Below, one piece after another: positions 3,954-29,845 of a DNA stretch of 64,000 nt. The stretch covers positions 85,483-149,482 of the IMG/VR virus record IMGVR_UViG_3300017989_000062. The stretch is one strand, 5' to 3'. How positions within the stretch are numbered: position 1 is the first letter of the stretch; every line of letters begins with the position of its first letter. Position numbers and translations under genes: made by a program. Below the pieces are notes generated by a model, which saw only the letters and a list, made by a program, of their open reading frames with translations, searched no databases and had not been told where the DNA came from. Origin of the DNA: a virus (Duplodnaviria; Heunggongvirae; Uroviricota; Caudoviricetes).

Positions 3954-4032
3954 TTCACCATTGAGTTATATAACGACTATCAACTCTACACTTTCTTTTG
4001 GATTTTAAGATATCATGTTCATGGAGGAACAC

Positions 4033-4257
4033 ATGGCAAAGAAGCAGGGAAAGAATGCGAGTCGTCCGTCAGCTCAGAGATATAAGGCGGAGAAAAGATC
4101 AGAGTTCAACAGGCTGCGTAAACAGGAGAAGCATAAAAGAAAGGTGGAAAAACAAGCCAAACGTAAAGAAGAACAAAAATTGCGTAAATTACAAACGGAC
4201 GCTGTTAAACGACATCAAGGAGAATCAGATGGACCAGTTAATACCGAAGTTGTATAA
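4033..4257 (+). CDS. Small highly basic (K/R-rich) protein, possibly nucleic-acid binding
   Basis: GGAGG RBS 7 nt upstream of ATG. 74 aa with more than 35% K/R. Overlaps the start of the topoisomerase A-like gene by about 29 nt. Confidence 0.35.
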   Translation: MAKKQGKNASRPSAQRYKAEKRSEFNRLRKQEKHKRKVEKQAKRKEEQKLRKLQTDAVKRHQGESDGPVNTEVV

Positions 4258-6510: not shown

Positions 6511-6513
6511 CAT

Positions 6514-7911: not shown

Positions 7912-7933
7912 AGAATGATATCAGTGAGGAAAC

Positions 7934-12184: not shown

Positions 12185-13231
12185 ATGGATAAAATTCAGA
12201 TTGTTAGTTGGTTGCTCACCAGGCGTTGTAATTTGAGATGTTCTTACTGTGCCCTCGTTCGAAATTACAAACATATGCCAGAAAAGTATCCTCAAATGAA
12301 ACACTATCATCAACATGAGATGTCAACAGAATATGTGATTGAGGTTCTTGGTAAATTGAAGGAGCATAATCCGAATGTTTTCAATATCTTATATGGCGGC
12401 GAACCGCTTCTAAGAAAAGATTTGGCTAAGATTGTGAATTTCTGTAATGATAATGACATTCATTATACAATCATCTCAAATAATACTGAAGAGATTCAGC
12501 CATTGCTTGATGCGTTAATGGATGATGTGGAATACATTAATGGCTATACAGCATCAGTGGACCCAGTTATTGTAATGGATCCGGCAAACGTTGATCCTTA
12601 TCGTTTGGACAAAAGTCTTGCTGGTTATGCAAAACTGGTAGCTTTAAAGAAACTATTTGGATCGGATTATGTAAAAGACCCAGTAGCGGAAATCACTGTT
12701 GACAATGAGTCAGTTCCTTATCTCCACAAACTAGTCTCTTTGCTGACTGAAAATGAGATTAGTAGCGACATCACATTTGTGGATATTGCAAAGAGTCCTT
12801 ACTATGACTTCTCAAATGTTAGTGATGAGAGTCAGTTGGTTCATAGATCTGATGAACTGAGCATTCAATTTGATAAAATCATCGATGACAAATTGGATGT
12901 TCATATGGCGGACAAACTCTTGCCGGCAATGTGGAAAATTCTTCCAGCAGATATGGATTGTGAAATTGAACGTAATGTTCATAATATGACCATTGATGCT
13001 GATGGTACTGTGAGGTTGTGTTTGAGGATTCGAGGAACAGCAACTCCGACGTTAAAAGCAATCGACGCATTTACCCCAACTGGATTAAATCCTATTCTTA
13101 AGGAGCATCTCAAACGGGATAAGGAACGTTATTGTCGAGGATGCAACTGGACCTGTATGTTAATGTCCCAAATACTCATGAAACAAAGTCATTTGTATCG
13201 TGAATTAGTGCACACCGAGAGGAGAAAATGA
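12185..13231 (+). CDS. Radical SAM enzyme with a C-terminal Cys cluster (SPASM/twitch-like); anSME/peptide-maturase-like
   Basis: 'CNLRCSYC' (Cx3Cx2C, 12228-12251), 'GGEPLL', and C-terminal 'YCRGCNWTC'. At 348 aa it is longer than QueE. Confidence 0.7.
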   Translation: MDKIQIVSWLLTRRCNLRCSYCALVRNYKHMPEKYPQMKHYHQHEMSTEYVIEVLGKLKEHNPNVFNILYGGEPLLRKDLAKIVNFCNDNDIHYTIISNNTEEIQPLLDALMDDVEYINGYTASVDPVIVMDPANVDPYRLDKSLAGYAKLVALKKLFGSDYVKDPVAEITVDNESVPYLHKLVSLLTENEISSDITFVDIAKSPYYDFSNVSDESQLVHRSDELSIQFDKIIDDKLDVHMADKLLPAMWKILPADMDCEIERNVHNMTIDADGTVRLCLRIRGTATPTLKAIDAFTPTGLNPILKEHLKRDKERYCRGCNWTCMLMSQILMKQSHLYRELVHTERRK

Positions 13232-15669: not shown

Positions 15670-15997
15670 AGATAAAGAACTTGATCAAAAAGTTAAGAAG
15701 CTTTGTGATCAAATAACAGACGAAGAAAGAGGCAAAGAAGAGTATACTGGTCCTGAAGGTCCGAATATTTTCCTATCACTTGAAGCCAGGACAACGGACA
15801 AAGAAGAGTTCTTTCTGACTCTTGAACGAGAGGAGGCTGAAAAATATATAGTGTGCTTTTACGCAAGATTTGTTGCAAGTCCTACAGGTCCGAGAAAACC
15901 CTTGAAAAGAATCAATTCATGGGAAGTCAAGGATGATAGAGCCAATAAGATTGTAAGGATGTTTGCGGAAAAGCTCAAATATGTTAGAGGTGAGTGA
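15632..15997 (+). CDS. Hypothetical acidic protein
   Basis: ORF; likely start at MMGILEQLL after a GAAGGGA RBS. Confidence 0.35.
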   Translation: MMGILEQLLSEIEDKELDQKVKKLCDQITDEERGKEEYTGPEGPNIFLSLEARTTDKEEFFLTLEREEAEKYIVCFYARFVASPTGPRKPLKRINSWEVKDDRANKIVRMFAEKLKYVRGE

Positions 15998-16017
15998 TTT
16001 CGAAAGGAGATCGAATT

Positions 16018-18531
16018 ATGATGGAAGAAATCGTGTTAAACGATTATTACGCGAGTCTTGTGATAAGCGCTGAACGAGAAGGGAATGATCCTACGTTTAC
16101 TCCATATCGGAGAAGACGAATAATAAAGATGGATGAGTTTAATCAAAGATTTGGAGAGGCAACAAATCAAGCAGGAATGATTTTGCCACAAAATACTCGA
16201 TATGTTGAACGTGTGGGTCGTCAAGGTTTACTCCTTGTTATTGAGGAATCTCCAAGAGTTCGGACCGTTAATGTTGAGATGGATATGGTTGGAACAATAG
16301 AGAAGCTCAAAATCACTGGACATTTGAAAGAGTATGGGTATGAAAACTGGTTAGAGGAGAATAAAAAAATACCATACAAATTTCGGCTTGCATTTCCTTA
16401 CATTGTATATGTGATGTTTATGGATGGAGGTTCATTAGTATCAGCTCATCCATATTACAGATTACACCCATTAACCTCTTTAGAAGATTATCTTCTTAAA
16501 CCAAATCTTCCAAATATCGGTAGTGGTGGGGCACTATGTCTTGGCTCGAATCCTCAAGATGGACATACAAAGAATCCATTTGAAGCGGCAAATGTTGCTC
16601 TTGAGAAATTCTGGGTAAATGCCTTTAATACAGATTATGCCTCAAGATATACTTCATATGATAAAATACCTTTTGTATCCGACTGGTTAACGTGGCAATA
16701 TCATACAATTCAGGATCCAATGTTTATCTATTCAGTGCCTTGGATTAAAGAACCAAAGATCTTGATAGATGCAATTAAGGATGTTATTGAAAGAGATCGA
16801 AGATATGGTACAGGTGTGGCATTAAGTTTTGACTCGTTGAGAAGCATTTTTACAAAACGAGTTCCTTCAAAAGATGACCCTATGTTTTATCATAATGTGA
16901 CTGAATCGGTTATCGTGGGTAGTGCGACGCTGGCGATTGGGGATGAAGTAGAATACCAAAAGAAACCTTACTATGTTCACTCGTTTTCTGGTAAACGACT
17001 TTGCCGTCCTGTTTCTGTCAATCTTGAAGATGATGAGGGTAATATCAAAGAAGTAAATCTTACTGCATCAACAGAAAAACAATTTGAGAAACAACTTCTT
17101 GGAGAGAAGCGACTGAAATATGTAACAGTTCAAGACCAAGAAGTGTCAGTTGGAGATATTCTGGTATTAAGTTATCCAGAAAATGCGTATCGTAAAGTAT
17201 CAAAAATACGACAAGGTAGAGATGGTAAAATTGAGGTACAATGTAATCAAACTGATTACTATCTTCTTGAGAACTTAAAATTTTCTCGATTTACTGATAA
17301 CCTAATTAACATAGATGGAGTTGAGGTTGGGAAGGATGAAGAGGTTTATCTCCTTGATATACATAACAGTTCCTCGAATCCTCTATGCGTTGGATCAAAA
17401 GTTGTTTTCTGTGGATTTTCGGATACAAGGGATGGAGTTCTTATTGGTGAGTTTAAAGATGTTGATACTGACCAGCCAGAAATCCATAGTGTTCGACTTC
17501 AGAATAGCTCAAAACGTTTGGTGAAGATGGAGGATATGTATATTCCACCAGTATATCGAATATTCTGTAATTTACATACCAATACTCCACGAGATACCCC
17601 TCAGTATCCTTTGATGAGAAAATATGGGTCTTTGACTCCACGTAGAGGCACAGAGGGTAACAGATACCATCAGGCATATGCCACAAAGAAAATCTTATCT
17701 GAAGATAAATCAGAACTTCATATTCCCGGGTTTGATATTGATATCAACTTTAAAGTTGGGGATAGTGTTGTGATCTCAGATTGGGAACATCCTTTGGAGA
17801 TGTTAAAGGTTAGAACCATTCAATCTTTTACAATAGAAGGATCGGCGTTGTTTGTCAATACAATTACCGCGAAGGGAGTTGAACGAAAAGATCTGTATAT
17901 TAACCTTATAACTGGGTGTATTTGGACTGGCACAATTCGTCATATAATGCCAGAATTTGGTGGAATAAAGGCTGGAGATAAAATACGAGCAAATACTCCT
18001 GGTATTACAATGTTCCCGAAGAAAGACACAAACACAGTTATTGGTTTCTTATCGGATTGTGGTGAAGATCATTATCCACTGATGTTGTGTTCTAACTGTT
18101 GTACACAATGGGCAAGTCCTGCAGGTCTAAGTCGATTTGATGTTATCAGAAGAGGAACTCCTCAGTGGATGAAAGCTAAAAATGCCCCAATACAAATAAG
18201 TAAAATCAAATATCAATGTGGAGATATGGTTTGTAGTTTGAATGACTCACCGCAATTTTATGTAGGAGTATATCATAAATACGGTGGAGAAGTTAGAATG
18301 ACCGATCTCAGACAATGGGGTACAGGATATTATAACGATATTACTGAATACACTCGTGAACGTTGGAGAAGAGTAGGATTCATATCTCCTCGTTATCAAC
18401 AAAGAGTGTTGGGTGAGTTAAGACGCAGACAAAAAGCGGGGTTTTCAAATCTACATAACGGTTTTACTCCATATCCAACAACAGAAAATCGATACAGGGA
18501 GGACTGGGATTATGTTCAATGTCTGGATTAA
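16018..18531 (+). CDS. Large (about 837 aa) protein of unknown function heading the JAB/E1/E2 operon; contains a possible divergent UBC-like motif
   Basis: AAGGAG RBS before MMEEIVLN. 'VYVMFMDGGSLVSAHPYYRLHP...IGSGGALCLGS' (about 16440-16560) loosely resembles the E2 HPN...G.ICL core. Confidence 0.45.
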   Translation: MMEEIVLNDYYASLVISAEREGNDPTFTPYRRRRIIKMDEFNQRFGEATNQAGMILPQNTRYVERVGRQGLLLVIEESPRVRTVNVEMDMVGTIEKLKITGHLKEYGYENWLEENKKIPYKFRLAFPYIVYVMFMDGGSLVSAHPYYRLHPLTSLEDYLLKPNLPNIGSGGALCLGSNPQDGHTKNPFEAANVALEKFWVNAFNTDYASRYTSYDKIPFVSDWLTWQYHTIQDPMFIYSVPWIKEPKILIDAIKDVIERDRRYGTGVALSFDSLRSIFTKRVPSKDDPMFYHNVTESVIVGSATLAIGDEVEYQKKPYYVHSFSGKRLCRPVSVNLEDDEGNIKEVNLTASTEKQFEKQLLGEKRLKYVTVQDQEVSVGDILVLSYPENAYRKVSKIRQGRDGKIEVQCNQTDYYLLENLKFSRFTDNLINIDGVEVGKDEEVYLLDIHNSSSNPLCVGSKVVFCGFSDTRDGVLIGEFKDVDTDQPEIHSVRLQNSSKRLVKMEDMYIPPVYRIFCNLHTNTPRDTPQYPLMRKYGSLTPRRGTEGNRYHQAYATKKILSEDKSELHIPGFDIDINFKVGDSVVISDWEHPLEMLKVRTIQSFTIEGSALFVNTITAKGVERKDLYINLITGCIWTGTIRHIMPEFGGIKAGDKIRANTPGITMFPKKDTNTVIGFLSDCGEDHYPLMLCSNCCTQWASPAGLSRFDVIRRGTPQWMKAKNAPIQISKIKYQCGDMVCSLNDSPQFYVGVYHKYGGEVRMTDLRQWGTGYYNDITEYTRERWRRVGFISPRYQQRVLGELRRRQKAGFSNLHNGFTPYPTTENRYREDWDYVQCLD

Positions 18532-19675
18532 TGATGGGACTACAGAGATGCCTTCCGACGATATTCTATACATTGTCTCAAAAGAAGGCATCTTCTTAAA
18601 GAAAAAACTAGGGTTGTTTGAAAGCATGGCTCCTGTAGACGGTATCAGTATTCTGAATGAGCTTGAATCTTATGCACATATGGATATTTACCAGATTCCA
18701 GGAAAGATGTTCTCTCAAGTTTTGTATTTCTTCATTGCTGTTCTCAAAGAATACAAAGGAGAAGCAAATGTTATTATTCATTATAATCAAACCACTGGAA
18801 ACTATAAGTTTGAAATACCAGAGCAAAAGGTTGCTCCAGCGGGAACTGCATATGAAAGTGAGGTGAGTTATAAAAACTTTGTAAGATTAGGAACAATTCA
18901 TAGTCATTGTAATTTCTCAGCTTTTCATTCTCCAACTGATAAGGGTGATGAAGCAACATGGGATGGTTTACATATTACCATCGGAGATATTTTTAAACCA
19001 GCCTTCTCATGTACGGCATCTATTGTAGCAAATGGAACAAGGTTTGTGGTCAATCCAACAGACTATGTTGAAGGGTTGGAGCTTACAGAAGTTGAAACAA
19101 TAACTAATCCTCAGTACGCTGCATATCTGGAAAGGGAAGGAAAGGAAATTCCAGAAACTATGATTAAAAAGACGCTTGGATATAAAATCAATGTTGATGC
19201 AAAAGGATATCCAGCCAAATGGATGTCCAGCATATCCAAGAAGGAATACAAACCTGTTGTATATGGCTCAAATGGAGATCGAAGATATGGACATTGGGGA
19301 CAATGGCATCGAGATGTTCGACAACCAGGACTTTTTGATGGTACTGGAAACACAGTATTTCCAGATCAATCAATGTTGATTCCAGATCCAGGAAAGTCAT
19401 ATTCTGATCTTCTCTTTCGACAGTTTGGGGGAACGGAATGGAATCCCTGTGAGGAATGTCCTTATAAGAATCACAAGGTTGATTTACTTATGGAATCTAT
19501 TCTAGAAGAGCTTGATCTAGATGACGACCAACTTGAAAAACTTGGTTTTGAGGTTGATGATGAACAAACTGAACTGAATAGTGACGAACCTCATAACTAT
19601 ATTCCAGAGCATTATCAACAAGAAGGGTTTAGGACACCTGAAGAAGCCATTAACGGAGGTGTGCATGAGGATTAA
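18512..19675 (+). CDS. JAB/MPN+ (JAMM) metalloprotease, deubiquitinase-like
   Basis: Exact JAMM signature HxHx7Sx2D in 'HSHCNFSAFHSPTD' (about 18893-18934), with an upstream Glu. Confidence 0.65.
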   Translation: MFNVWINDGTTEMPSDDILYIVSKEGIFLKKKLGLFESMAPVDGISILNELESYAHMDIYQIPGKMFSQVLYFFIAVLKEYKGEANVIIHYNQTTGNYKFEIPEQKVAPAGTAYESEVSYKNFVRLGTIHSHCNFSAFHSPTDKGDEATWDGLHITIGDIFKPAFSCTASIVANGTRFVVNPTDYVEGLELTEVETITNPQYAAYLEREGKEIPETMIKKTLGYKINVDAKGYPAKWMSSISKKEYKPVVYGSNGDRRYGHWGQWHRDVRQPGLFDGTGNTVFPDQSMLIPDPGKSYSDLLFRQFGGTEWNPCEECPYKNHKVDLLMESILEELDLDDDQLEKLGFEVDDEQTELNSDEPHNYIPEHYQQEGFRTPEEAINGGVHED

Positions 19676-20450
19676 AATTATTGGTTTGGGTGGAGTTGGT
19701 ACATATCTCTGTGATGCATTATGTAGATACTTAAACTATGGAGAAGCTTCTGATATCATTGTTACGATGGTTGATGGAGATTCATACGAGCAAAAGAATC
19801 TACAACGGCAGGTATTCACCGATTTTGGAAATAAAGCTGAAACAAAGAAAGCAGATATGCAGGAGCTTTATGACCGACTGAAGTTTGAGAACATTAACTC
19901 TTTCGTAAATTCAGAAAACATTAGGAGGATAGTGTACAGTGGTGATATCGTGTTTGTGTGTGTTGATAACCATCAGACGAGAAAAGTTGTTTCTGATTAT
20001 GCAACAACCTTGGACGATATTACAATAATTTCGGGCGGTAATGAATTTACCGACGGTAATGTCCAAATTTATGTGAGGAAAGGAGGCATTGATATTACGC
20101 CATCACTTACGGACTACCACCCGGAAATTGAAACCCCAGGTGACCGGTCACCTGAGGATATGGGGTGTGAAGAATTGGCAAAGGCAGCACCACAGCTTTT
20201 GTTTACCAACCTAACAGTAGCTACGATTATGTGTTGGGTATTCTACGCACTTATTCTGCAAAAAGATCCAGTTGCATTTGCAGAGATTTATTTTGACCTT
20301 GAGACCATGAGCGTGAGATCTCAAATCAGAAAACCAGTAACGAAAGGAGTTCGATCGAATGACCAAAGTAACGTTGAACGAAAAGACAGTAGCGGAACTA
20401 CGCCAAATGTGTCGGGATCAGGATATTCCTGGTATGAGCAAGAAGCGTAA
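19665..20450 (+). CDS. ThiF/MoeB/E1-like adenylyltransferase (E1-like subunit a)
   Basis: Rossmann 'IIGLGGVGTYL' and 'DGDSYEQKNLQRQVF', which is ThiF-family Dx-D...NLxRQ. GGAGG RBS before MRIKIIGLGG. Confidence 0.65.
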   Translation: MRIKIIGLGGVGTYLCDALCRYLNYGEASDIIVTMVDGDSYEQKNLQRQVFTDFGNKAETKKADMQELYDRLKFENINSFVNSENIRRIVYSGDIVFVCVDNHQTRKVVSDYATTLDDITIISGGNEFTDGNVQIYVRKGGIDITPSLTDYHPEIETPGDRSPEDMGCEELAKAAPQLLFTNLTVATIMCWVFYALILQKDPVAFAEIYFDLETMSVRSQIRKPVTKGVRSNDQSNVERKDSSGTTPNVSGSGYSWYEQEA

Positions 20451-20850
20451 GGATGTCATCATTGACGCAATTTTGAAAGCCAACAGGACAACAACCAAGG
20501 CAGCTTCTTCTGGAAGAAAGAAGGCTGGACATATGGCTGCGTTGGCAACACAAGCTGGTGTGGAACAAGTTACCAAGGCTGATTTCCAAATGTCAAGCGT
20601 TTTGACTCATCCATCGAAAAAGCCTGGGGATAGATGTACCACGGCTATTCGAGTATCCTGTGGCGCCAACTCTGGCAAGTTCCCAGTGACTGGCAAGACA
20701 GTCGGGGCAGTTGGTGAGTTCTTGAGGGAAGTCCTCAATGTTGATAGACTCGCCGAGGGTATTGTAAACGGTGACAAGGTTGACGGAGCTTACGTTCTCA
20801 AAGATGGGGATGATCTTGAGTTCTTGAAACCCGCAGGCCGTAAAGGCTAG
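20359..20850 (+). CDS. SAP/Rho-N-like domain fused to a ThiS/MoaD-like beta-grasp (ubiquitin-like) domain
   Basis: The N-terminal 'TVAELRQMCRDQDIPGMSKKRKDVIIDAIL' has a SAP/HeH pattern. The C-terminal 'VNGDKVDGAYVLKDGDDLEFLKPAGRKG*' resembles the ThiS/MoaD end 'NG..V....LKDGDEV.i.PPVSGG'. AAGGAG RBS. Confidence 0.55.
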   Translation: MTKVTLNEKTVAELRQMCRDQDIPGMSKKRKDVIIDAILKANRTTTKAASSGRKKAGHMAALATQAGVEQVTKADFQMSSVLTHPSKKPGDRCTTAIRVSCGANSGKFPVTGKTVGAVGEFLREVLNVDRLAEGIVNGDKVDGAYVLKDGDDLEFLKPAGRKG

Positions 20851-20860
20851 TATCTGAGCT

Positions 20861-20900
20861 AAGGAGTAGCTCGGTTACTAGTAGTCGGGCTACTCCTTTC
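20861..20900 (+). terminator. Strong stem-loop / terminator candidate after the Ubl-like gene
   Basis: 10-bp perfect stem AAGGAGTAGC/GCTACTCCTT with an 18-nt loop containing the TACTAGTA palindrome, followed by TTTCTT. Confidence 0.5.
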
Positions 20901-20915
20901 TTAAAAGGAGATAGT

Positions 20916-21509
20916 ATGGATGGAGTTAGTGTTGTAGAAGAACATCCCGACTACTATGTGCTTGAAAAAGATGGAGAGCAATTTGAAGCTCTTAAAATTA
21001 AGAAAGATGTAGTACAAAAAATACAAGACGAATCAAATCGAAAGGTTGCAGAAAAACTTACTAAAGATGATATGTACCAATTACTTTCTACTCTTACAGA
21101 TATTATGAATGATATCCCAACAGTAGAGACTTTCGAATTTGTAACAAATAAGCTGGCTGATTATCTACAAGTATTGTATGATAAAGTCGGCAGACCCAAC
21201 TTGTTTCATCATCCAATTAAGAATCTTCATACTGAGTGTTACGGGAAAGCTCAAACGTTTATGAAGGAAGTGTTACAATTATACGAGACAGCCATCGAGA
21301 TTGCTGAAATGATGAAAGAAATGGGAAAGTTGTCTGAAGTAGAGACAGCTCAAATACCCTATAAAAAATATACGATTCAATTCAATGGTGAAGGTTCAAC
21401 ATACTTTACATCTGATTTGGTCCAATTATCTGAAAAGCACAGAGATGAAGGGAAAGATGTTAAACTAAGGCAACAAGCGATACATAGAACTTTTACAAAA
21501 ATCGCTTGA
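20916..21509 (+). CDS. Hypothetical protein within the E1/E2 operon
   Basis: ORF with a GGAG RBS; no recognisable motif. Confidence 0.45.
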   Translation: MDGVSVVEEHPDYYVLEKDGEQFEALKIKKDVVQKIQDESNRKVAEKLTKDDMYQLLSTLTDIMNDIPTVETFEFVTNKLADYLQVLYDKVGRPNLFHHPIKNLHTECYGKAQTFMKEVLQLYETAIEIAEMMKEMGKLSEVETAQIPYKKYTIQFNGEGSTYFTSDLVQLSEKHRDEGKDVKLRQQAIHRTFTKIA

Positions 21510-21584
21510 TTTGTGAAACAAATTTATTTATAAAGAACAAATAACAAACCTTATAGGTCTAGAGAGAAAAGATGGAGGATACCC

Positions 21585-22460
21585 GTGGAGAAAGTGGCGA
21601 TTGTAGGGTGCGGTAGTTTGGGTAGTCATTTAGCACAAAGTCTCTCAGAGCTTGACGAAGTGAAAGAACTCGTGTTGATTGATCACGATAAGGTTGAGAA
21701 GAGAAATCTCAGAAACGCGTGTTTTAGAAAAGGAGATATTGGAACATATAAAACAGAAGCAGTATGCTCGTCAATTACACAAAGAAGAGATGATATTGTG
21801 TTGACAGCTGTAAATGAGAAGTTTCTTGAAGGACAAACCCCAATACCAGAGTGTGATCTGGTTATTGATTGCAGAGATTATGTATATGATCGAAAGGGTA
21901 GCATTCATGTTCGAATGTATATGTCTTCAAGATATCTAATTGTTGATGGCCGACAAGATGTCGAGTATGCTGCAAATCATCAAGGACGTTATTTACATAA
22001 ACTCACCAAAACAGATCTTAGAGTGGCAGCATTTAGTGCTTCTACTTTAATACAAAAAGGTCTCATTTCAGATATTATCAACAAACAACTTATCCATAAA
22101 ATTGAGTTGGATTATCTCAATCGTGATATAGCACAAAGTATGGCACTTGTTAGAAGAGCGCCGGATGAAATTTTGGAATATCAAGATGGAGAAAAGAAAC
22201 TCACCAACCTTTATGAAAATCTACCTCGAATAAAAGAGATGAATCAAATGAATCCAGTCTTCATATTCGTAGGTAGTAAGGATTATCCAATCGTTAAACG
22301 AAAAATACCGGCAGGGTCAATACGAGATTCAAATGACGCAATTGCCTGCTTGATTTCCTCACTCGACTTACCTTTTGTATTTAACACTTACATAGTATCA
22401 CCTGGCTGTGATAATGGTTGTCATTACGTAGAGTTAATAGCAGAAACAGGAGCAGCATAA
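21585..22460 (+). CDS. ThiF/E1-like adenylyltransferase (E1-like subunit b; GTG start)
   Basis: 'VAIVGCGSLGSHLAQ' Rossmann and 'LIDHDKVEKRNLRNACF'. GGAGG RBS before the GTG start. Confidence 0.6.
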   Translation: MEKVAIVGCGSLGSHLAQSLSELDEVKELVLIDHDKVEKRNLRNACFRKGDIGTYKTEAVCSSITQRRDDIVLTAVNEKFLEGQTPIPECDLVIDCRDYVYDRKGSIHVRMYMSSRYLIVDGRQDVEYAANHQGRYLHKLTKTDLRVAAFSASTLIQKGLISDIINKQLIHKIELDYLNRDIAQSMALVRRAPDEILEYQDGEKKLTNLYENLPRIKEMNQMNPVFIFVGSKDYPIVKRKIPAGSIRDSNDAIACLISSLDLPFVFNTYIVSPGCDNGCHYVELIAETGAA

Positions 22461-22484
22461 ATAAGGGTATGGAGGAGAACACAA

Positions 22485-22823
22485 ATGATTACTGTCCCGG
22501 TTCAAGTAGAAATAGTTCCAGATAGATTGATCTTTAAACAACAAGTAAAACCAATTATAGATGTTGACGAGAAATTTGTGTTCTATGGGTTCACAATGCA
22601 ATTTTCAGATGATAATCTTCTGAGAAGGGTAAAAATACCTGGAGTGCATCCAAACTGTGACCCAAGCTCTGGTTTACTATGTTTGCCTAAAGATCTTGAA
22701 TTTCAACAAAGAAGCGAGTTTCTTATTCCAACTGTAATCAGTCTTCTAAAAACTTTTAACTTAGATGATAGCTATTTTCAGCCCTGGAATGAGTTTGAAT
22801 GGATTGAAAGCAAGGAGGATTAA
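22485..22823 (+). CDS. UBC-like E2 ubiquitin-conjugating enzyme homologue
   Basis: 'VKIPGVHPNCDPSSGLLCLPKDL...VISLLKTFN' matches the E2 HPN-x(3-5)-G-x-[IL]CL...SLL core (about 22641-22690). Confidence 0.55.
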   Translation: MITVPVQVEIVPDRLIFKQQVKPIIDVDEKFVFYGFTMQFSDDNLLRRVKIPGVHPNCDPSSGLLCLPKDLEFQQRSEFLIPTVISLLKTFNLDDSYFQPWNEFEWIESKED

Positions 22824-22825
22824 AA

Positions 22826-23080
22826 ATGGAAGTGAAGACCGCGTTAAAAAATCTTGGAGAAAAGCTAAGACCTGTCGTTGTAGAACTTATTCAAGGTTTG
22901 GAAAAACCAATGAAAGAGGGAGGAGAAAAAGCGGCGCAAATTTTGCTAGCTGAGGCACAAGGAAAGATAGCAAAACAATGGGATAAAGGTAAAGACAAAA
23001 TCATTAAGAAATTAGAGAATGAGGAGGGGGATACAGATGCCCAAGAAAGCGAAACCGCAGGATCTGGAGAAACTCTCTAG
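22826..23080 (+). CDS. Hypothetical small protein
   Basis: ORF with an RBS. Confidence 0.35.
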   Translation: MEVKTALKNLGEKLRPVVVELIQGLEKPMKEGGEKAAQILLAEAQGKIAKQWDKGKDKIIKKLENEEGDTDAQESETAGSGETL

Positions 23081-23294
23081 CCTGTTTGGTAACCTAATGG
23101 ATTTGGAGAATGTGGCAACATCATTTGTTGAGGATATCGTTGAAAAGAAACAAGCCAAACTAACCAAAAAAGATATCAAAACAATTTCTCAAGATCTGAT
23201 GCCTGATTTGGACAAGATGATTTCTAAAAGAGTGAAAGAACATTTACAATTCTTAGTCGATACATTGAATAAAGCAATTAAAAAGGGGGAGTAA
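23037..23294 (+). CDS. Hypothetical small protein
   Basis: GGAGGGGG RBS before MPKKAKPQ. Confidence 0.35.
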   Translation: MPKKAKPQDLEKLSSLFGNLMDLENVATSFVEDIVEKKQAKLTKKDIKTISQDLMPDLDKMISKRVKEHLQFLVDTLNKAIKKGE

Positions 23295-23297
23295 CTT

Positions 23298-25997
23298 ATG
23301 CCATGCCTTCTGGACTATGCACAATTCTGTGAAGAATTACCCGAAGTTAGATCCTCAAAAATCATGGATAAGAAACATTTTCATCCAGAGGGTTTATTTT
23401 CGGAGCAAATCTTTGGTCCTCTTAAAAACTATACGTGTCAATGCGGAACCTACCATGGAGTGTCAAAGTCTGGAGGGACATGTGGTGAATGCGGTGTTGA
23501 CATTGTAAATAGTGATGAGAGACGTCGGAGATTTGCAAAAATTATACTGCCGATAGAGGTTATGAATCCAGTATTTTATGATTTGATTGCTGATGTGGGC
23601 GGTAAAGATATTAAAGGTGCGATTGATACACTTTTGAAAAAAGAAGATGCTGTTATGTATATGGATGAAGAAGAATTTGTTGTGACAACTCAAGAGCATC
23701 TTCCTGAGAATGTGACCAAATGGGAACGTCTGGAAGCAATTAATGAACTAGTTACTGGTCTTGCAGATAAGTTATGTGTGGAGATGGATGAATGGCAGTT
23801 AATTAAAAATAATATTGACAGGTTATTCTTAAGGTCAATTATCGTTCTACCTCCAGATCTTAGACCAGCGGCAAAAGGTGTTGAAAGAAATAGCCAGGTC
23901 GTGGATAAGATTAATCGTTTCTATAATCAAATCCTAAACAAAAAAGAAACTATGGAAGCAACGCTAGTTGACGTGTTGCGAGATAAGCAACTTTTCTATA
24001 GTTACTTTAAACAATTACAAAAAGACGTCAATGATCTATACAGTCACATAGTAGAAAAAATGTCTAAGAAGGAAGGTTTGATTCGAGGAAACATTCTTGG
24101 CAAACGAATTGATTTCTCTGGTCGAGCTGTTATTATTCCTGATCCAACGATTAACCTTGATGAGTGTGTTTTGCCGTATGCAATGGTTTTAGAATTATTT
24201 AAGTTGCAAATTGCAAAGAAGTTAATTGATATAGAGAAATTCAAAACCTTGAATCAAGGAATTGATTTTGTTGATGAATGTATTGAATATCAAATACCCG
24301 TCTTGTTCAAGATTTGCCAAGAGATGGTTAAAGGTGAAGTGTGTTTGCTTAACCGTCAACCATCACTACATAGACTCAGTATGCTAGGGTTTAAGGTCCA
24401 GGTATCTCTTGATAATGTTATTAAGATTCATCCTTTAGCCTGCCCTCCATTTAACGCAGACTTTGATGGAGATCAGATGGCAGTTTATATCCCTATATCC
24501 AAGAAAACAAAAGAAGAGGTTCTTGAGAAGTTTCTTATTACAAGAAATTTTACAAACCCAGCTAATGAAAGTCTCACAACCACACCCAGTCAAGATATCA
24601 TTTTGGGTATTTATACGCTTACAAATAATGAGTTTCCACAGTTGCAGAAAACAGTTGAATTGAAGGGTTCTATGATATCAGAAGGAAGAGCATTGTTCAA
24701 TAAATGTCTTCCAGAAGATTATCCAGTTGTTGACGAAGTGGTTCGAGCAAAAGATCTAATGAAAATATTGGATCGAATTAAGCGAGAATATAGTTACCAA
24801 ATACTGGCAGTAGTCCTAGATGAAATTAAACGTCTGGGTTTTAAATATAGTACATTATATGGTTCTTCTATGTCACTACAAGCATCTCGAGTAGAAGGAG
24901 CCAATGAATTACAAAAAAGTCTGTATGTAGATGATGATATTAGGGAACAGTTAAATAAAGTTTCTAGTAATGTAACACAAAAATTTCTGGAAGATCACTT
25001 TTCATATTCCTATATGATTGAGTCTGGAGCGAGAGGTTCATGGGATCAGGTTAGACAAATAGTACTAACTCGAGGATTTATCTCTAACTTCAAAGGTCAA
25101 ATTATTCCTCATCCAATTAAACACAGTTTTCTTAACGGGTTGACTCAGAAAGAGTTCTTTGATTCAACTTATGGAAGTCGAAAAGGGTTGCTGGACGTTG
25201 CTCTAAATACTGGCTCGTCAGGCTATCTTTCTAGAAAACTAATCTTTGCTTGCACCAATTTGATTCTGAACACAGATGTTGAAGATTGTGGTACAACAGA
25301 TTTCTTAGAAGTCTTTGTGGCAGATAAAAAGAAAGCAAGGATGTTGATTGGGAAATGGATGAAGACTGATAACGGGTTGGTTGCAATTACAGAAGAAAAC
25401 AATCAAAGTCTTGAAGGCACAACTATACAAGTAAGAAGTCCTATTTTCTGTAAGAATCCAGGTATCTGCTGTAAGTGTTATGGGGAGTTGTATAAAACCA
25501 TAGACAGTAGATTTGTAGGAGTTATTGCTGCTCAGTCAATGGGAGAAACAAATACTCAGTTAGTTTTAAGAACCTTCCATACAAGTGGGGTTGCTGTTAT
25601 TAAGGATCTCCAAGATGAAGATATGAAGCAAATGGATATTGTAAACGATTTGTCTATAGCTTCAAAGTTACTTCATCAGTTTAAAGGTGAAACACACACA
25701 TCCTTAGTTCATAAACTTTGTGAAGTGTATAATAACAGTCGATCAATACATCATGTTCATTTTGAATGTGTGGTAGCTCAGTTAATGTGGTTTGGTTATA
25801 CAAAATGGCGATTGTTACATAACAGAGATAAATACGCACCAGAATTTCACTCTGTGCAGACTGTTCCTTCATACGAGAGTTGGTTATTGGCTCTAGCATT
25901 CTCCAACCCGAAGCGAAGTATCCTAAAGGGTATTCTCTACAGTGGTCGGTATACTGGAGTTATGGATACAATTCTGAAGGGAGGTATGGTTGTATGA
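23298..25997 (+). CDS. Multisubunit RNA polymerase beta-prime-like subunit (unsplit)
   Basis: N-terminal zinc-binding 'CQCGTY...CGECGV'. The universal catalytic motif 'NADFDGDQMAV' at about 24441-24480. Confidence 0.85.
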   Translation: MPCLLDYAQFCEELPEVRSSKIMDKKHFHPEGLFSEQIFGPLKNYTCQCGTYHGVSKSGGTCGECGVDIVNSDERRRRFAKIILPIEVMNPVFYDLIADVGGKDIKGAIDTLLKKEDAVMYMDEEEFVVTTQEHLPENVTKWERLEAINELVTGLADKLCVEMDEWQLIKNNIDRLFLRSIIVLPPDLRPAAKGVERNSQVVDKINRFYNQILNKKETMEATLVDVLRDKQLFYSYFKQLQKDVNDLYSHIVEKMSKKEGLIRGNILGKRIDFSGRAVIIPDPTINLDECVLPYAMVLELFKLQIAKKLIDIEKFKTLNQGIDFVDECIEYQIPVLFKICQEMVKGEVCLLNRQPSLHRLSMLGFKVQVSLDNVIKIHPLACPPFNADFDGDQMAVYIPISKKTKEEVLEKFLITRNFTNPANESLTTTPSQDIILGIYTLTNNEFPQLQKTVELKGSMISEGRALFNKCLPEDYPVVDEVVRAKDLMKILDRIKREYSYQILAVVLDEIKRLGFKYSTLYGSSMSLQASRVEGANELQKSLYVDDDIREQLNKVSSNVTQKFLEDHFSYSYMIESGARGSWDQVRQIVLTRGFISNFKGQIIPHPIKHSFLNGLTQKEFFDSTYGSRKGLLDVALNTGSSGYLSRKLIFACTNLILNTDVEDCGTTDFLEVFVADKKKARMLIGKWMKTDNGLVAITEENNQSLEGTTIQVRSPIFCKNPGICCKCYGELYKTIDSRFVGVIAAQSMGETNTQLVLRTFHTSGVAVIKDLQDEDMKQMDIVNDLSIASKLLHQFKGETHTSLVHKLCEVYNNSRSIHHVHFECVVAQLMWFGYTKWRLLHNRDKYAPEFHSVQTVPSYESWLLALAFSNPKRSILKGILYSGRYTGVMDTILKGGMVV

Positions 25998-26224
25998 TAA
26001 GTTATTTACATACAATGAGGCGACCAAGAAAACCAGCTATGAAACCAGGATACAATATCTGGAGTCTTAACGGGTTTTGGTATTGGTCGTATGTTTCATC
26101 AAATGGAACAATGATGGCGAAGTGTGGTGCAGGTTTAACATCCAAAGCAAACATACAGAGATCACTGAACAGATTTATCAAGCTAGTAAAAACATATTAC
26201 ACTCCAATTCATTTTCACGACTAG
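25994..26224 (+). CDS. Possible small Trp/Tyr-rich ORF between the RNAP subunit genes
   Basis: ORF 25880..26224 continues past the beta-prime stop. Only the part after the internal Met can be independent. No RBS evaluated. Confidence 0.2.
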   Translation: MISYLHTMRRPRKPAMKPGYNIWSLNGFWYWSYVSSNGTMMAKCGAGLTSKANIQRSLNRFIKLVKTYYTPIHFHD

Positions 26225-26238
26225 GGAGGAGGAACACA

Positions 26239-29200
26239 TTGAAATTTGTTAATCCGATGTTTAAACCTAAGGAAGATAACATCTTTCTTATACGACAACG
26301 GGAATTTGATGCATTAGAATCCACAATTCTTCAAATATTGCAACCAGTTGTTGATATTGGTTTTGAAATTGTGGATTTCGGCATTAAAGATCCAAAAATG
26401 GCATCAGGAGAATTACAACCAACCCTTAGAAAGAATTTAATTATCAAATTACAAAGAGGGACGTCAAACATTGATCTCTCTATGCAAATACCAGCTCTAA
26501 TTGATGACAACTATATTATCATCAATGGAAGAAAGAAAATCCCTCTGTTTCAATTATTTGATATTCCTGTTGTGACAAGGGGGAAAGCAATTAAAATTAG
26601 AACTAACGTCGCTACTATGATGTTGTTTGAGGAAAAGAATCCACCCTACGTCTATCTTAGTATATTGGGAAAAAGGGTTCCATTCTGTATGATTATGTTT
26701 GCGAAGTATGGTTATGAAGTATTAGATAGTCGATTTGATTTTGCGAATCTCGATCCATCGTTGGATACGATTTACGGAAAGCTTCTATATGATTTGAAAC
26801 TAATGTATGAAGCTGGAGAATCTACCCAAGTGGACATCTTTCGAGAAATTGGTAGAATCTACTCCAAGTATAACTTCTTGGCGAAGGGTGAAACATTACT
26901 CTATGCTCTCGACATCATGCTTGCAGTAGATCCATACTCTGCAAAATTCTTTAAGACAGATTCCGTTATTGAGGAATTTATCGACGTTATGCAGAATCCA
27001 GATTACGATGATACCGACTATCAAAATAAAAGAATCAGGTGTTTTGAGTATGCCGTAGCATCAAAGGTTTCCAAAGCTGTATTTGATTTATGTCTTGCTC
27101 ACAGAACCACAAGAAATGCCAAATTCAATGTCAACTCAACAAAAATACTGACTGAATGCAATGTGTCTGATATTGTTCAGTTCGATTTCTCTATTAATCC
27201 AATTGAAGAGTTAACCAAACTTTCAAGAACTAGTTTGGTAGGACCTGGTGGATTTAAACGAGAAAATGTTCCTGAGCATCTCAGAGATCTTAGCGACACA
27301 ATGTTTGGTCGAATGTGTCCTGTTGATACTCCTGATCGAGATAACTGCGGAGTATTGCAGAATCTTTTAGTTAACACAAAGTTTGACGAGAATCTCAGAT
27401 TTACAAATGAAACTCTTGTGGATGCACCAATCTCTATCCCAGTATCAATGGTTCCATTTCTCGAACATGATGATCAGACCAGACTGCAAATGGCTTCTTC
27501 ACAGATGAGACAAGCTGTATTGTTAAAGAAGTTTGATACACCAATGGTCCAATCTGGGTGTGAAGGATTATATACAGATCATACTCAGTTTGTAAAACTT
27601 GCTAAGAAAAATGGAGAAGTTGTTTATATCAATGACAAACATATGATCGTTGTTTATGATGACAAATCTATTGACATCTTCAACGTTGGATATCGAAAAA
27701 TCTATGTTGAAAACATGGATTTAATTAATGTATATGTCAAACAGGGAGATAAGTTCAAAGCAGGTGATATACTTGCTGAAAGCAACTATTGTACCGATGG
27801 TAGTATAAACATTGGTAAAAATTTACTTACGGGAGTTATGATCTATTATGGTCATAATTATGAGGATGGTATTGTTATCTCAGACAGGTTGGTAAATGAT
27901 GGGTCTTTTACATCAGTACATTATAGAGACTTCTCATTCACATTACCACCAGATAAGGTTCTTCTGAGTCTTGAAGAAGATTCATATAAACCTCTACCTG
28001 ATGTATTTGACAAGGTTACGATTGGTTCTACGTACGCTATTATGAAGAAGGTTCCACAGGGTCCAACAGACTTCTGTTCAATCTTTGAAGAGCCGATTGA
28101 ACTTACAACAAAAAAGTCCGTAGTAATTACTGAAGTTAACATTTACCCCAATACATGGAATGAAGGTATTCCAGAGTTTAAAGATTGGGTTGAAGCAAAA
28201 ATTGAAACTCAATTACAAAAAGAGAAAGAAATACAAGACATATTAAAGTCTCACTTACCAAAAGAAGTTGTGTCAAGATATATTAGAGACAATGGATTCG
28301 ATAAGAGTAGTTTTGTTAGAAAATACAAGGTGAAGAAAGAAAAGGTTAATGGTATACAAGTTGAGATGTATGGTATATACACTCGCAAAATACAAGTTGG
28401 AGATAAGATCGGAAATCGGCATGGTAACAAAGGTGTTATTTCAACTATAGTTCCTCATGAAATGATGCCCCAACTAGCTGATGGACGACATGTAGATATT
28501 TGCATTAACCCACTCGGAATTATCAGTCGAATGAACATTGGTCAATTATTTGAATTACATTTGAGCATGGCTTTAGATGATCTCAAGAAGAATCTTTTGA
28601 AAATGATAGAGAATAAACAAGGTCAAGCACAACTTAAATTATATTTAACTGGTTTTTACAAGGCAATTGATAATACAAAAACTGGTTGGTATACAAAACA
28701 ATATATGGAGCAAATACCCGAAGTCATTGATAAAGACTTTGTTGAGCATCTTACAGTAATACAACCGCCATTTGAATCTGTTACTGCAACCATGCTTGAA
28801 GAAGTTCTAAAGTATACAGAAACATCATTTGAACAGAAACTCTTAGATCCAGTTTCTGGACAACATTTGTTAAATACTGTCGCAGTTGGGTTCATGTACT
28901 TCTTTAGAATGGTTCATATTGCTGAGTCAAGATTAGCAGCGAGAGGGATTGGATCATATGCAAGAAGAACATTACAACCGTTAGCCGGGAGAAAAAATAA
29001 AGGTGGACAAAGACTTGGTGAAATGGAAACAGCATGTCTAATTGCTCACGATGCACCATACAATATAGCTGAATTCTTAACTACAAAATCAGACTGTATT
29101 GATATGAAAAATAGATTTCTTAGAAATACAATTGAAACTGACTTACTAAAAGATGAAAGCAATGGGGATTCAATAGTGGCTGAATCAGTTAAGTTACTTG

Positions 29201-29280
29201 AAGCCTATTTGCTTGCGATTGGAGTGCAGCCAAATGACAGACGTCAAACACAAACCGAGGATAGCGGTATACGCGGGTAG
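26239..29280 (+). CDS. Multisubunit RNA polymerase beta-like subunit (unsplit)
   Basis: 'GDKIGNRHGNKGVIS' matches bacterial beta 'GDKxAGRHGNKGVIS' (about 28408-28440). GGGAGGAGG RBS with TTG at 26239 or ATG at 26257 as possible starts; the ORF-track start at 26077 is likely too far upstream. Confidence 0.85.
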   Translation: MKFVNPMFKPKEDNIFLIRQREFDALESTILQILQPVVDIGFEIVDFGIKDPKMASGELQPTLRKNLIIKLQRGTSNIDLSMQIPALIDDNYIIINGRKKIPLFQLFDIPVVTRGKAIKIRTNVATMMLFEEKNPPYVYLSILGKRVPFCMIMFAKYGYEVLDSRFDFANLDPSLDTIYGKLLYDLKLMYEAGESTQVDIFREIGRIYSKYNFLAKGETLLYALDIMLAVDPYSAKFFKTDSVIEEFIDVMQNPDYDDTDYQNKRIRCFEYAVASKVSKAVFDLCLAHRTTRNAKFNVNSTKILTECNVSDIVQFDFSINPIEELTKLSRTSLVGPGGFKRENVPEHLRDLSDTMFGRMCPVDTPDRDNCGVLQNLLVNTKFDENLRFTNETLVDAPISIPVSMVPFLEHDDQTRLQMASSQMRQAVLLKKFDTPMVQSGCEGLYTDHTQFVKLAKKNGEVVYINDKHMIVVYDDKSIDIFNVGYRKIYVENMDLINVYVKQGDKFKAGDILAESNYCTDGSINIGKNLLTGVMIYYGHNYEDGIVISDRLVNDGSFTSVHYRDFSFTLPPDKVLLSLEEDSYKPLPDVFDKVTIGSTYAIMKKVPQGPTDFCSIFEEPIELTTKKSVVITEVNIYPNTWNEGIPEFKDWVEAKIETQLQKEKEIQDILKSHLPKEVVSRYIRDNGFDKSSFVRKYKVKKEKVNGIQVEMYGIYTRKIQVGDKIGNRHGNKGVISTIVPHEMMPQLADGRHVDICINPLGIISRMNIGQLFELHLSMALDDLKKNLLKMIENKQGQAQLKLYLTGFYKAIDNTKTGWYTKQYMEQIPEVIDKDFVEHLTVIQPPFESVTATMLEEVLKYTETSFEQKLLDPVSGQHLLNTVAVGFMYFFRMVHIAESRLAARGIGSYARRTLQPLAGRKNKGGQRLGEMETACLIAHDAPYNIAEFLTTKSDCIDMKNRFLRNTIETDLLKDESNGDSIVAESVKLLEAYLLAIGVQPNDRRQTQTEDSGIRG

Positions 29281-29845
29281 TTTTGACCCACCAACTAATG
29301 GACACCAATGGGTTATCAATCAAGGAGCACACCTGTTTGATAAACTTCTTATTGCAATCGGTATAAACCCAGAAAAGAAATCTTACTTTAGCCAGTTTGA
29401 ACGTTTGGCGATGATGAGTCAAATGGCTTCAATCTACCCAAACGTTCAAGCTGTGGTTTTAGGAAATGAGTATTTAGTTGACTTTGCAGCTTCACACAAA
29501 GCGAACTATATTCTTCGAGGGATTCGTTCTAGAACAGACTTTGCTTTTGAAAATACAATGAGACAATTTAATGGCGGGTTGAAACCATGGATAAACTCGG
29601 TGTTTCTTATCCCGCCTGCATCATTAATTAATGTAAGTTCTAGCACCATTAAAGGTTTAATCGGTCCCAAGGGTTGGCAAGAGGTTGTCAAAAAGTTCGT
29701 GCCAGAAAATGTGTTTGAAGCTATATCAAACAAACACAAGGAGAAAACAGATGTCTCAAAAGTCCGACCAATCAGTACCGACCCCCTCTTCTTCAGAGCT
29801 ACCAGACATTCAGGAGACGACACCAAAAATAAAAAGACCGATTAA
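29234..29845 (+). CDS. coaD: Phosphopantetheine adenylyltransferase (CoaD/PPAT family nucleotidyltransferase)
   Basis: 'RIAVYAGSFDPPTNGHQW' (GxFDPxTxGH) and 'ILRGIRSRTDFAFE...SVFLIPP...SSSTIKGL' are collinear with E. coli CoaD. The real C-terminus is probably near ...FEAISNK, and the ORF tail overlaps the next gene. Confidence 0.7.
   Translation: MTDVKHKPRIAVYAGSFDPPTNGHQWVINQGAHLFDKLLIAIGINPEKKSYFSQFERLAMMSQMASIYPNVQAVVLGNEYLVDFAASHKANYILRGIRSRTDFAFENTMRQFNGGLKPWINSVFLIPPASLINVSSSTIKGLIGPKGWQEVVKKFVPENVFEAISNKHKEKTDVSKVRPISTDPLFFRATRHSGDDTKNKKTD

Follow-up and report, generated by a model that had tools for sequence, protein, structure and literature searches.

The 64,000-nucleotide (nt) stretch analysed here, hereafter the window (positions 85,483 to 149,482 of the IMG/VR record IMGVR_UViG_3300017989_000062), belongs to the genome of a tailed phage and carries on one strand a run of genes whose products resemble the components of ubiquitin-like protein conjugation, namely a ubiquitin-like modifier (Ubl), two E1-like proteins (E1a and E1b), two E2-like proteins and a JAB metallopeptidase. 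A preliminary description of the sequence had located five of these proteins between 18512 and 22823, and all five are indeed present there with signatures far beyond chance. That extent holds for five genes and misses the first one, which encodes a protein of 845 amino acids (aa) at 15994-18531; judged from sequence, six conserved genes make up the module, and these genes and their key motifs are the following.

15994 to 18531, plus strand: 845-aa protein, with residues ~50-262 of the Prok-E2_D type and a C-terminal extension of ~580 aa
16513 to 16539, plus strand: putative catalytic motif of the E2_D domain, N174-IGSGGAL-C182
18512 to 19675, plus strand: JAMM/JAB metallopeptidase, 387 aa, its N-terminal domain conserved and a CxxC knuckle at its C-terminus
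18899 to 18940, plus strand: JAMM motif HSHCNFSAFHSPTD (HxHx7Sx2D), from translation and conservation
19665 to 20450, plus strand: E1a, single-domain ThiF/MoeB-type adenylating enzyme
20359 to 20850, plus strand: Ubl, 163 aa, with a Rho_N/SAP (HeH) domain at ~3-45, a low-complexity linker and a beta-grasp domain at ~77-163
21585 to 22460, plus strand: E1b, 291 aa, with a ThiF-like Rossmann N-terminal half and a separate C-terminal region
22485 to 22823, plus strand: minimal UBC-fold E2, 112 aa, with the motif H55-P-N-x8-C66 (codons 22647-22682)

The genes of the module overlap or lie at most 75 nt apart, with GGAG-type ribosome-binding sites throughout. Relatives were sampled as 8 contigs found by exact-protein look-up and 80 IMG/VR loci found with a profile of the Ubl, and the gene order in these loci was read with hidden Markov models built from the six families. 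The same order, which had been proposed as something to search for in other phage genomes, recurs everywhere in these about 90 metagenomic contigs: the ~850-aa protein, JAB, E1a, Ubl, a variable position, E1b and the small E2. All six genes are present in 62 distinct loci and the remainder are cut by contig ends, except for one (L011) in which E1b is kept and the small E2 is lost, a coiled-coil open reading frame (ORF) standing in its place (L011:8443-8865). The weakest profile matches to the small E2 still lie in the same gene arrangement. The best-conserved parts are the beta-grasp domain of the Ubl and E1a, with mean pairwise identities of 0.61 and 0.57, followed by JAB (0.39), E1b (0.38), the small E2 (0.31) and the 845-aa protein (0.30). 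Since these identities are low, the catalytic residues, which are invariant in ~70 distinct sequences, are kept against a strongly diverged background.

Among the enzymes, E1a starts at an ATG at 19665 behind a GGAGG ribosome-binding site, in an ORF that is open from 19581, and it matches Pfam ThiF (PF00899) with E=8.5e-21 and 74.6 bits against a cutoff of 28.1. It belongs to the ThiF/MoeB/E1 adenylating superfamily, as the motifs GLGGVG, KNLQRQ, GNKA..K and VDNH are kept in at least 68 of 71 sequences, and the Gly loop, R76, Q77, K85, D129 and C196 in at least 70 of 71 and also in distant bacterial relatives. In particular, Cys196 (...EDMGCEEL; numbering from 19581; codon 20166-20168) is found in 71 of 71 and again in the distant bacterial relatives; it is placed 67 residues past the Mg-binding Asp, a spacing that is presumably near that of MoeB C187 and ThiF C184, and is presumed to lie in the crossover loop. 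The E1a profile matches MoeB, BubCD and ThiF across the adenylation domain, its size is that of a single MoeB/ThiF domain, and the match to PRTRC_ThiF extends over the full length (E=1.5e-12). On these motifs, E1a is probably an active E1.

The JAB protein carries the exact JAMM motif that the preliminary description had reported, H130-S-H132-x7-S140-x2-D143, with E84 upstream, and all five residues (E84, H130, H132, S140 and D143) are invariant in 72 of 72 distinct homologues. The completeness of the motif argues for its membership of the JAMM/MPN+ metallopeptidases. Rpn11 is the top PDB profile match, aligned on the motif (E=0.02), and the Pfam Prok-JAB match is weak (E=0.013, 15.8 bits against a cutoff of 25). 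PRTRC_A is matched over nearly the whole model with E=3.6e-5, and with 7e-9 by the JAB of L096, a Chloroflexota relative described below. Long variants of 500-627 aa occur in some relatives (for instance L006:7563-9269) and have at least three zinc-ribbon-like CxxC...CxxC pairs in a C-terminal extension; the window JAB retains one CxxC only (C313, C316).

The 112-aa protein, which had been described as a UBC-like E2, does have the UBC fold and belongs to the UBC/E2 superfamily, with an invariant HPN...C motif. It lacks the C-terminal helices, and a Foldseek comparison with the viral models of BFVD gave nothing significant. Two-domain relatives of the small E2 also exist (P0156, P0234, P0268, P0270, P0256, P0190 and L080:11783-12703); several of them have lost the catalytic Cys in one domain, giving a UEV-like plus E2-like tandem that recalls UEV-E2 pairs.

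The inventory of E2s drawn up earlier was right about the 112-aa protein and missed a second candidate, which is probably the principal E2 of the module. The gene for the 845-aa protein is found immediately 5' of JAB in essentially all related loci, and the N-terminal domain of this protein is a probable E2. Indeed, the segment LPNIGSGGALCLG carries Asn174 and Cys182, both invariant in a 56-sequence alignment and also retained in distant bacterial homologues, in the motif LPN-x7-C-L-G, whose spacing N-x7-C-L-G equals the HPN-x7-C of canonical E2s. Pfam Prok-E2_D (PF14460) is matched by 50 of the 56 homologous phage N-terminal domains at E<=0.1 (best 4.1e-7), and a standalone 259-aa homologue in L096 matches it with E=3.2e-5 (24.2 bits against a cutoff of 25) and PRTRC_B with E=4.7e-4. 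In hhalign comparisons, the motif fell on HPN...C both with canonical E2s (P=0.007) and with the 112-aa family (P=0.03); a PDB sequence search with the N-terminal domain gave nothing useful. A second conserved cysteine, C699, is present in the C-terminal extension, in LCSN..T.W. Two lineages vary around this gene, one with an acidic Rho_N-only ORF 5' of it (L018:5414-5776), the other with two tandem paralogues (L072:3292-5649 and 5649-8093).

Reduced versions of the module exist in bacteria. The Ubl profile, run over 185,579 species genomes, recovered two further phage-type contigs together with such reduced relatives. Four Chloroflexota contigs encode, in this order, a Ubl of 90-107 aa with no SAP domain, the standalone 259-aa E2_D homologue, JAB and E1a, and one contig each of Candidatus (Ca.) Falkowbacteria and Ca. 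Nomurabacteria, from the candidate phyla radiation (CPR), encodes first an E2_D-containing protein (745 or 489 aa), then JAB, E1a and a Ubl of 70-87 aa. E1b and the small E2 occur in none of these sets. Since the E2_D domain recurs in bacteria beside Ubl, JAB and E1 in a different gene order, it is linked functionally to them. The Chloroflexota copy (L096:1-20207, on a 533-kb contig) is part of a region resembling an integrative conjugative element, with a VirB4/TraG-like ATPase, an M23+SLT protein, a coupling ATPase and a Replic_Relax protein in its surroundings; after it come genes for an AAA_16 ATPase and a serine recombinase. In Falkowbacteria, the copy is surrounded by the housekeeping genes PolA, RuvC, YebC and iPGM.

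The Ubl unites the two domains attributed to it at the outset, an N-terminal SAP/Rho-N domain and a MoaD/ThiS-like C-terminal domain ending in ...LKPAGRKG, and a fold search places the latter among the beta-grasp modifiers. The top PDB profile match, the FHA domain of Dun1 (E=0.012, on NG..V..Y.L..GD), was discarded as misleading, the fold search having given beta-grasp. In the tail ...LKPAG[RK]KG, G160, K162 and G163 are invariant across homologues, and ~30% of these have an extra 1-5 residues past the terminal Gly, most often Cys. In one relative (L013:9980-10939), a single ORF comprises two whole SAP-Ubl units head to tail, the first of which ends in ...PAGRKG and continues with ADET..., and in another (L074:9992-10621) the Ubl has a 69-residue C-terminal tail; the Ubl of the bacterial relatives ends in ...KGLVA, ...KGSF or ...KG. 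The tandem precursor and the short tails past the terminal Gly imply processing by JAB. Precursors of ubiquitin and of the Bil Ubl show this pattern and have their Gly exposed by a trimming peptidase (10.1101/2023.09.26.559546), and by analogy the co-encoded JAB is the obvious candidate for the trimming peptidase. In one further relative (L087:9974-10618), the Ubl carries two SAP/Rho_N copies.

The overlap of about 90 nt between the E1a and Ubl genes that had been noted is real and amounts to 92 nt, produced by a C-terminal extension of E1a of ~35 residues. It is confined to the lineage of the window (window, L001, L009 and L010), as elsewhere E1a stops before the Ubl gene, and the Ubl ATG has its own Shine-Dalgarno sequence, AAAGGAG, 9 nt upstream. 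The lineage-limited overlap and the separate ribosome-binding site speak against the translational fusion of E1a and Ubl by frameshift that the preliminary description had entertained, and it was rejected.

The character of the Ubl raises the question of whether it is a protein tag or a sulfur carrier. In the latter case, E1a would adenylate the Ubl, which would be thiocarboxylated and then donate its sulfur to tRNA, DNA or a cofactor in a thiolation reaction, in the manner of MoaD, ThiS, TtuB and Urm1, and JAB would only mature the carrier. The beta-grasp domain is in fact nearest to MoaD, ThiS and SAMP, the L096 Ubl passes the Pfam ThiS cutoff (25.0 bits against 22.5), E1a has the size of one MoeB/ThiF domain, and possible nucleotide-modification genes (radical SAM, FolE2, cytidylyltransferase) lie nearby. 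However, two E2-like proteins with invariant Asn...Cys motifs speak for conjugation, and a rhodanese domain was not found on E1a, nor a sulfurtransferase, PP-loop thiolase, MoaE or ThiG among the scanned ORFs of the window, whose 64 kb belong to a genome that measures at least 156 kb. The Ubl itself ends in KG and not in GG, is fused to a SAP domain and has a tandem precursor form in one relative. A sulfur carrier is thus considered very unlikely.

E1b differs from E1a in its catalytic residues. Both proteins match Pfam ThiF, as had been claimed, E1b with E=6.3e-18 and 65.2 bits over residues 3-100 only, and its PDB profile matches are limited to residues 4-110. The NLxRQ motif ascribed to both proteins is complete in E1a but not in E1b, which keeps the Gly loop, D33, K56 and D95 and has NLRNAC in place of the motif, Arg-Gln being replaced by Asn-Ala in the window and by Asn-Ser in the family consensus. 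E1b is thus a member of the adenylating superfamily by fold and homology that fails in the catalytic motif, and its sequence indicates that it is probably not an active adenylating enzyme. This degenerate motif fits the idea of an active and an inactive E1 subunit, if the two proteins pair. The Rossmann half of E1b scores 1.3e-14 against the Cap2-type E1-E2 models of PADLOC and 7e-10 against the NCBIfam model 6A-MBL cap2_3. Its C-terminus, ...ELIPETGAA-COOH (22446-22457), is almost invariant, with T-G-A/G-A conserved and never extended, and by eye a beta-beta-alpha-beta-beta pattern precedes it. No similarity of this C-terminus to the Ubl family was detected by hhalign, and comparison of the C-terminal domain with PDB sequences gave nothing useful. 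By analogy, the C-terminal region could be an E2-recruiting domain like the ubiquitin-fold domain (UFD) that recruits E2, a pseudo-substrate tail, or a second conjugatable C-terminus like that of the CD-NTases in cyclic-oligonucleotide-based antiphage signalling systems (CBASS).

The last option leads to an explanation in which the six genes form two modules, one consisting of E2_D, JAB, E1a and Ubl, the other of E1b and the 112-aa E2 as an independent, split Cap2-like unit, whose substrate would be the ...ETGAA end of E1b, conjugated as the CD-NTase C-terminus is in type II CBASS. The best scores of the E1b Rossmann half are those against Cap2-type E1-E2 models, the E1b and small E2 genes are adjacent and often overlap, the pair is missing from the reduced bacterial systems, and the nearly invariant, never extended T-G-A/G-A end after an apparent beta-beta-alpha-beta-beta pattern would suit a substrate. 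Yet the whole E1b family is devoid of the Arg-Gln pair, so that E1b is unlikely to adenylate alone, no similarity of its C-terminal domain to a Ubl or a PDB sequence could be detected, and L011 has E1b without the small E2. The division into two modules is therefore regarded as unlikely, though slightly less so than the sulfur carrier.

The module belongs to a phage genome. Indeed, the window encodes a T4-like large terminase, with 31% identity to that of Flavobacterium phage 'immuto' and next to those of T4-like cyanophages, as well as a tape-measure protein, topoisomerase II, a helicase, SbcCD and its own RNA polymerase, and proteins identical to those of the window are also found on one 156-kb metagenomic contig. 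These phage hallmark genes, together with E1, E2, JAB and Ubl with intact catalytic motifs, bear out the claim of a phage that carries a complete cascade. The clade to which the phage belongs is uncultured and deeply diverged, with contigs of up to 277 kb and a T4-like terminase. A DNA similarity search of window positions 18000-24000 against 50,697 deposited phage records gave zero matches, neither the Ubl nor the 845-aa protein had a tblastn match in these records, and tblastn of E1b found only unrelated ThiF-like genes, including the Rctr197k locus, which on inspection has no comparable module. PADLOC models gave zero matches for JAB, Ubl, the small E2 and the 845-aa protein, and PHROGs none for JAB, the small E2 and the 845-aa protein and solely Rho_N-type matches on the N-terminal domain of the Ubl. 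The bins given to related contigs are Thermoplasmatales, Heimdallarchaeia and 'uncultured bacterium', which probably reflects mis-binning; the strong GGAG ribosome-binding sites suggest a bacterial host.

Within this genome, the module is located between replication/repair genes and RNA polymerase genes, and the beta'/beta RNA polymerase genes are 3' of it in all annotated related loci. Its position and its universal presence in the clade argue for a core function of the phage. The same features bear on a further rival, which concerns the biological role and not the chemistry: the module could be an accessory conflict system, derived from PRTRC-like cassettes and acting outside the replication and transcription programme of the phage; its use would be counter-defence or superinfection exclusion, through the tagging of competing mobile elements or of defence proteins of the host. 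Some relatives are indeed part of an integrative conjugative element or stand in PRTRC-like surroundings, as is typical for conflict genes of mobile elements (PMC3318190), and the known bacterial Ubl systems, Bil and CBASS, act in phage-host conflict (PMC11601596). However, the module occupies the same position in essentially every member of the clade, in spite of an E2 identity of ~30%, embedded between replication/repair and RNA polymerase genes, which is the distribution of a core function and not that of a patchy accessory set. An accessory role is accordingly judged improbable, about on a par with the division into two modules.

Collectively, these data favour a phage-core ubiquitin-like protein-conjugation system of six genes, a reading to which a probability of roughly 0.6 can be assigned, and under which these phages probably tag proteins as eukaryotic cells do. 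Several points weigh against it. The whole stretch from SbcCD to RNA polymerase, small neighbouring ORFs included, is syntenic across the clade, so that gene order within the phages alone is weak evidence of functional linkage. The E2_D copy of the window itself falls short of E=0.1 for Prok-E2_D, and the 'Prok-E2' names of Pfam are fallible, as the Prok-E2_C of BilD is an inactive adenylation domain (10.1101/2023.09.26.559546). In addition, the structures nearest to the Ubl are sulfur carriers (MoaD/ThiS), and the pairing of E1a with E1b is pure inference.

What is shown are folds, motifs, gene association and conservation, including that of the catalytic residues for every step of the proposed conjugation pathway; the chemistry of the steps is modelled on the MoeB/ThiF, E2 and JAMM families. 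JAB would cut tailed or tandem Ubl after ...AG[RK]KG and expose the terminal Gly; as the Ubl ORF of the window already ends at Gly, JAB would here act mainly as a de-conjugating isopeptidase. E1a would bind ATP and adenylate Gly163 of the Ubl, which the invariant Cys196 in the crossover loop may then accept as a thioester. The Ubl would next be handed to an E2 cysteine, for which the candidates are C182 of the E2_D domain, the presumed ancestral partner and one that the reduced bacterial versions also have, and C66 of the 112-aa minimal UBC protein, and would finally be joined to target lysines by an isopeptide bond. As the Ubl bears its SAP/HeH domain on a flexible linker, targets would acquire a module that binds nucleic acids through their conjugation; alternatively, the domain may restrict tagging to DNA-associated proteins. 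For E1b, the most likely role is that of a partner with impaired catalysis, which would pair with E1a and/or recruit the small E2, encoded directly after it, much as canonical E1s and BilD include an adenylation domain or subunit that is inactive. The C-terminal part of the 845-aa protein may select substrates in the manner of an E3, or may itself be a substrate.

A bolder version of this scheme, put forward tentatively and at distinctly less than even odds, is that the clade depends on a SUMO-like system with a heterodimeric E1 (active E1a and degenerate E1b) and a pair of E2s that includes a giant E2/E3 hybrid. This system would attach a DNA-binding Ubl to DNA-associated phage or host proteins, the candidates being the adjacent RNA polymerase and host nucleoid or defence proteins. 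If true, it would be the first case of a prokaryotic virus with an obligate pathway of ubiquitin-like conjugation, and the product would be a protein tag with its own DNA anchor.

Other features of the region and of the window complete the picture, three of which lie among the genes of the module or downstream of them.

20916 to 21509, plus strand: 197-aa ORF, a variable insert that is not a conserved part of the module
23298 to 25997: phage RNA polymerase beta', directly downstream of the module
26077 to 29280: phage RNA polymerase beta, after beta'

Homologues of the 197-aa ORF are found in only 19 loci and are missing from many relatives, such as L006, and scans of Pfam/PADLOC/PHROGs type gave no family match for it. 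A 91-aa ORF (23019-23294), kept in 74 loci, precedes beta'. A radical SAM enzyme that is weakly QueE-like (12185-13231), a cytidylyltransferase-like protein (29198-29845) and a FolE2-type GTP cyclohydrolase I (29685-30671) may, from their sequences, represent nucleotide or 7-deazaguanine-type modification genes, and all three are kept near the module in relatives. Topoisomerase II is split into two genes (1712-3544 and 3998-5575), beside which there are homing-endonuclease-type ORFs of the HNH (phrog_1314; 2-1114) and I-HmuI-like NUMOD (1111-1758) kinds; a further such ORF, with HNH_3 and a C2H2 zinc finger, is at 33292-33816. The ORF at 35262-36032 is a strong match to Pfam DUF7873 (E=1.5e-65). 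The segment 42001-44236 has a G+C content of 0.49 against a background of 0.35-0.38, and an ORF at 43034-44152 with a weak DUF932 match is overlapped by an antisense ORF of 304 aa at 43322-44236. The coding strand flips at ~55000, with plus-strand genes until 55021 and minus-strand genes at 55018-63715, and the GC skew changes sign there too. The 64-kb window has no tRNA genes, and a scan of it for promoters and terminators gave a result no better than shuffled sequence.

Among prokaryotes, operons combining E1, E2, JAB and Ubl were predicted in 2006 (PMC1779556), and experimental studies exist for Bil, type II CBASS and Bub (PMC10097602, 10.1101/2023.09.26.559546, PMC11601596). Earlier cases in prokaryotic viruses are the Ubl and JAB of lambda/T1 tail assembly (PMC1779556) and the E1-like genes of the Nidhogg Asgard virus (10.1101/2021.07.29.454249). 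The literature searched holds no description of a phage-encoded cascade of this kind, a coverage that is incomplete and an absence that is not proof; this agrees with the earlier view of such a phage system as uncharacterised, as does the lack of Ubl homologues in the deposited phage records. The lambda/T1 tail proteins I (Ubl) and K (JAB and NlpC/P60) differ in having no E1 or E2 alongside (PMC1779556), and the Nidhogg Asgard viruses encode nothing of the kind beyond E1-like genes, the proposal being that they make use of the Ubl system of the host (10.1101/2021.07.29.454249).

The nearest likeness is found in the PRTRC cassette (TIGR03735-03742) and Prok-E2_D neighbourhoods, which share a JAB (PRTRC_A), an E2_D-type protein (PRTRC_B) and a short ThiF (PRTRC_ThiF). 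The cassette is a gene set of mobile elements (plasmids, integrative elements and genomic islands) with unknown function (PMC3318190). However, the PRTRC scores are far under the curated cut-offs (JAB 23.4 against 101.8, E1a 47.4 against 144.75, L096 E2_D 19.6 against 131.45), and the Ubl is ThiS/MoaD-like with no PRTRC_C match. A ParB-like partner was not identified for the module, PRTRC D-F and ParB not having been searched systematically. The phage version goes beyond PRTRC in the SAP domain of the Ubl, the 580-aa extension of E2_D, E1b, the second minimal E2 and the phage core genome. By these sequence scores, the core trio of E2_D, JAB and E1a is a distant relative of PRTRC and not a member.

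The Bil systems (BilABCD, types I/II) likewise combine Ubl, E2, JAB and E1, have a Ubl Gly followed by non-conserved residues, which JAB removes in Bil, and join an inactive to an active adenylation unit, a pairing that is presumed for the module (10.1101/2023.09.26.559546; PMC11601596). In contrast to BilD, a single polypeptide with an inactive adenylation domain, an active adenylation domain and a CYS domain (IAD-AAD-CYS), the module has two E1 genes and a Cys in the presumed crossover loop. The PADLOC models of BilA, BilB and BilC gave no match and that of BilD matches E1a with 1e-4 in the Rossmann part, which places the module outside Bil; Bil is also host-encoded, whereas the module is phage-encoded, with two E2-like proteins and a SAP-fused Ubl. 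Type II CBASS (Cap2/Cap3) resembles the module in that the Rossmann half of E1b is nearest to Cap2 E1 domains, in a minimal E2, and in a JAB as the reversing enzyme. It differs in that the module has no CD-NTase or effector, its E1-like protein and E2 are separate genes in the opposite order, its E1b is without the catalytic Arg-Gln, and a dedicated Ubl is present. Bub (BubA/BubB/BubCD) uses Ser/Tyr oxyester intermediates and no catalytic cysteines (PMC11601596), unlike the module, in which cysteines are invariant in E1a and both E2-like proteins. The SAMP/UbaA/HvJAMM1, TtuB/TtuC and Urm1/Uba4 systems resemble the module in their JAMM peptidase, in an E1 of one domain and in a MoaD/ThiS-like Ubl that ends in Gly. 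They have no E2, end in GG and double as sulfur carriers, whereas the Ubl of the module ends in KG, bears a SAP domain and is accompanied by two E2-like proteins.

The label 'eukaryote-like' used in the preliminary description cannot be upheld, as the core trio is nearest to the prokaryotic Prok-E2_D/PRTRC lineage and E1a is a single domain of MoeB/ThiF size. The likeness to the ubiquitin, SUMO and NEDD8 machineries (SAE1-UBA2, NAE1-UBA3) is architectural: an active and a degenerate E1 on separate polypeptides, here with an inferred pairing, a UBC fold with HPN...C, a polyubiquitin-like head-to-tail precursor (in one relative) and a huge E2-domain protein (cf. UBE2O, BIRC6). No specific sequence relationship was found, and E1a has no separate Cys domain or recognisable UFD. 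To our knowledge, prokaryotic ubiquitin-like conjugation has so far been shown experimentally only as anti-phage host defence, in Bil and type II CBASS; the same chemistry would now appear on the phage side, as a fixed core module beside the phage RNA polymerase and not as a sporadic accessory. What is known is the chemistry and the enzyme superfamilies, and what is new is the phage-core setting, the SAP-fused Ubl (tandem in one relative), E1a with a degenerate E1b, two E2-like proteins (one of 845 aa) and the minimal E2 family. In the literature found, a modifier that contains its own DNA-binding domain has no counterpart, nor has a tandem precursor in the style of polyubiquitin, an E1 apparently split into an active and a degenerate gene, or the presence of two different E2-like proteins. 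Lastly, Ubl, E2_D, JAB and E1 are common to the phage version and the four-gene bacterial versions and thus make up a minimal conserved set, which offers a functional handle on the uncharacterised Prok-E2_D/PRTRC family.

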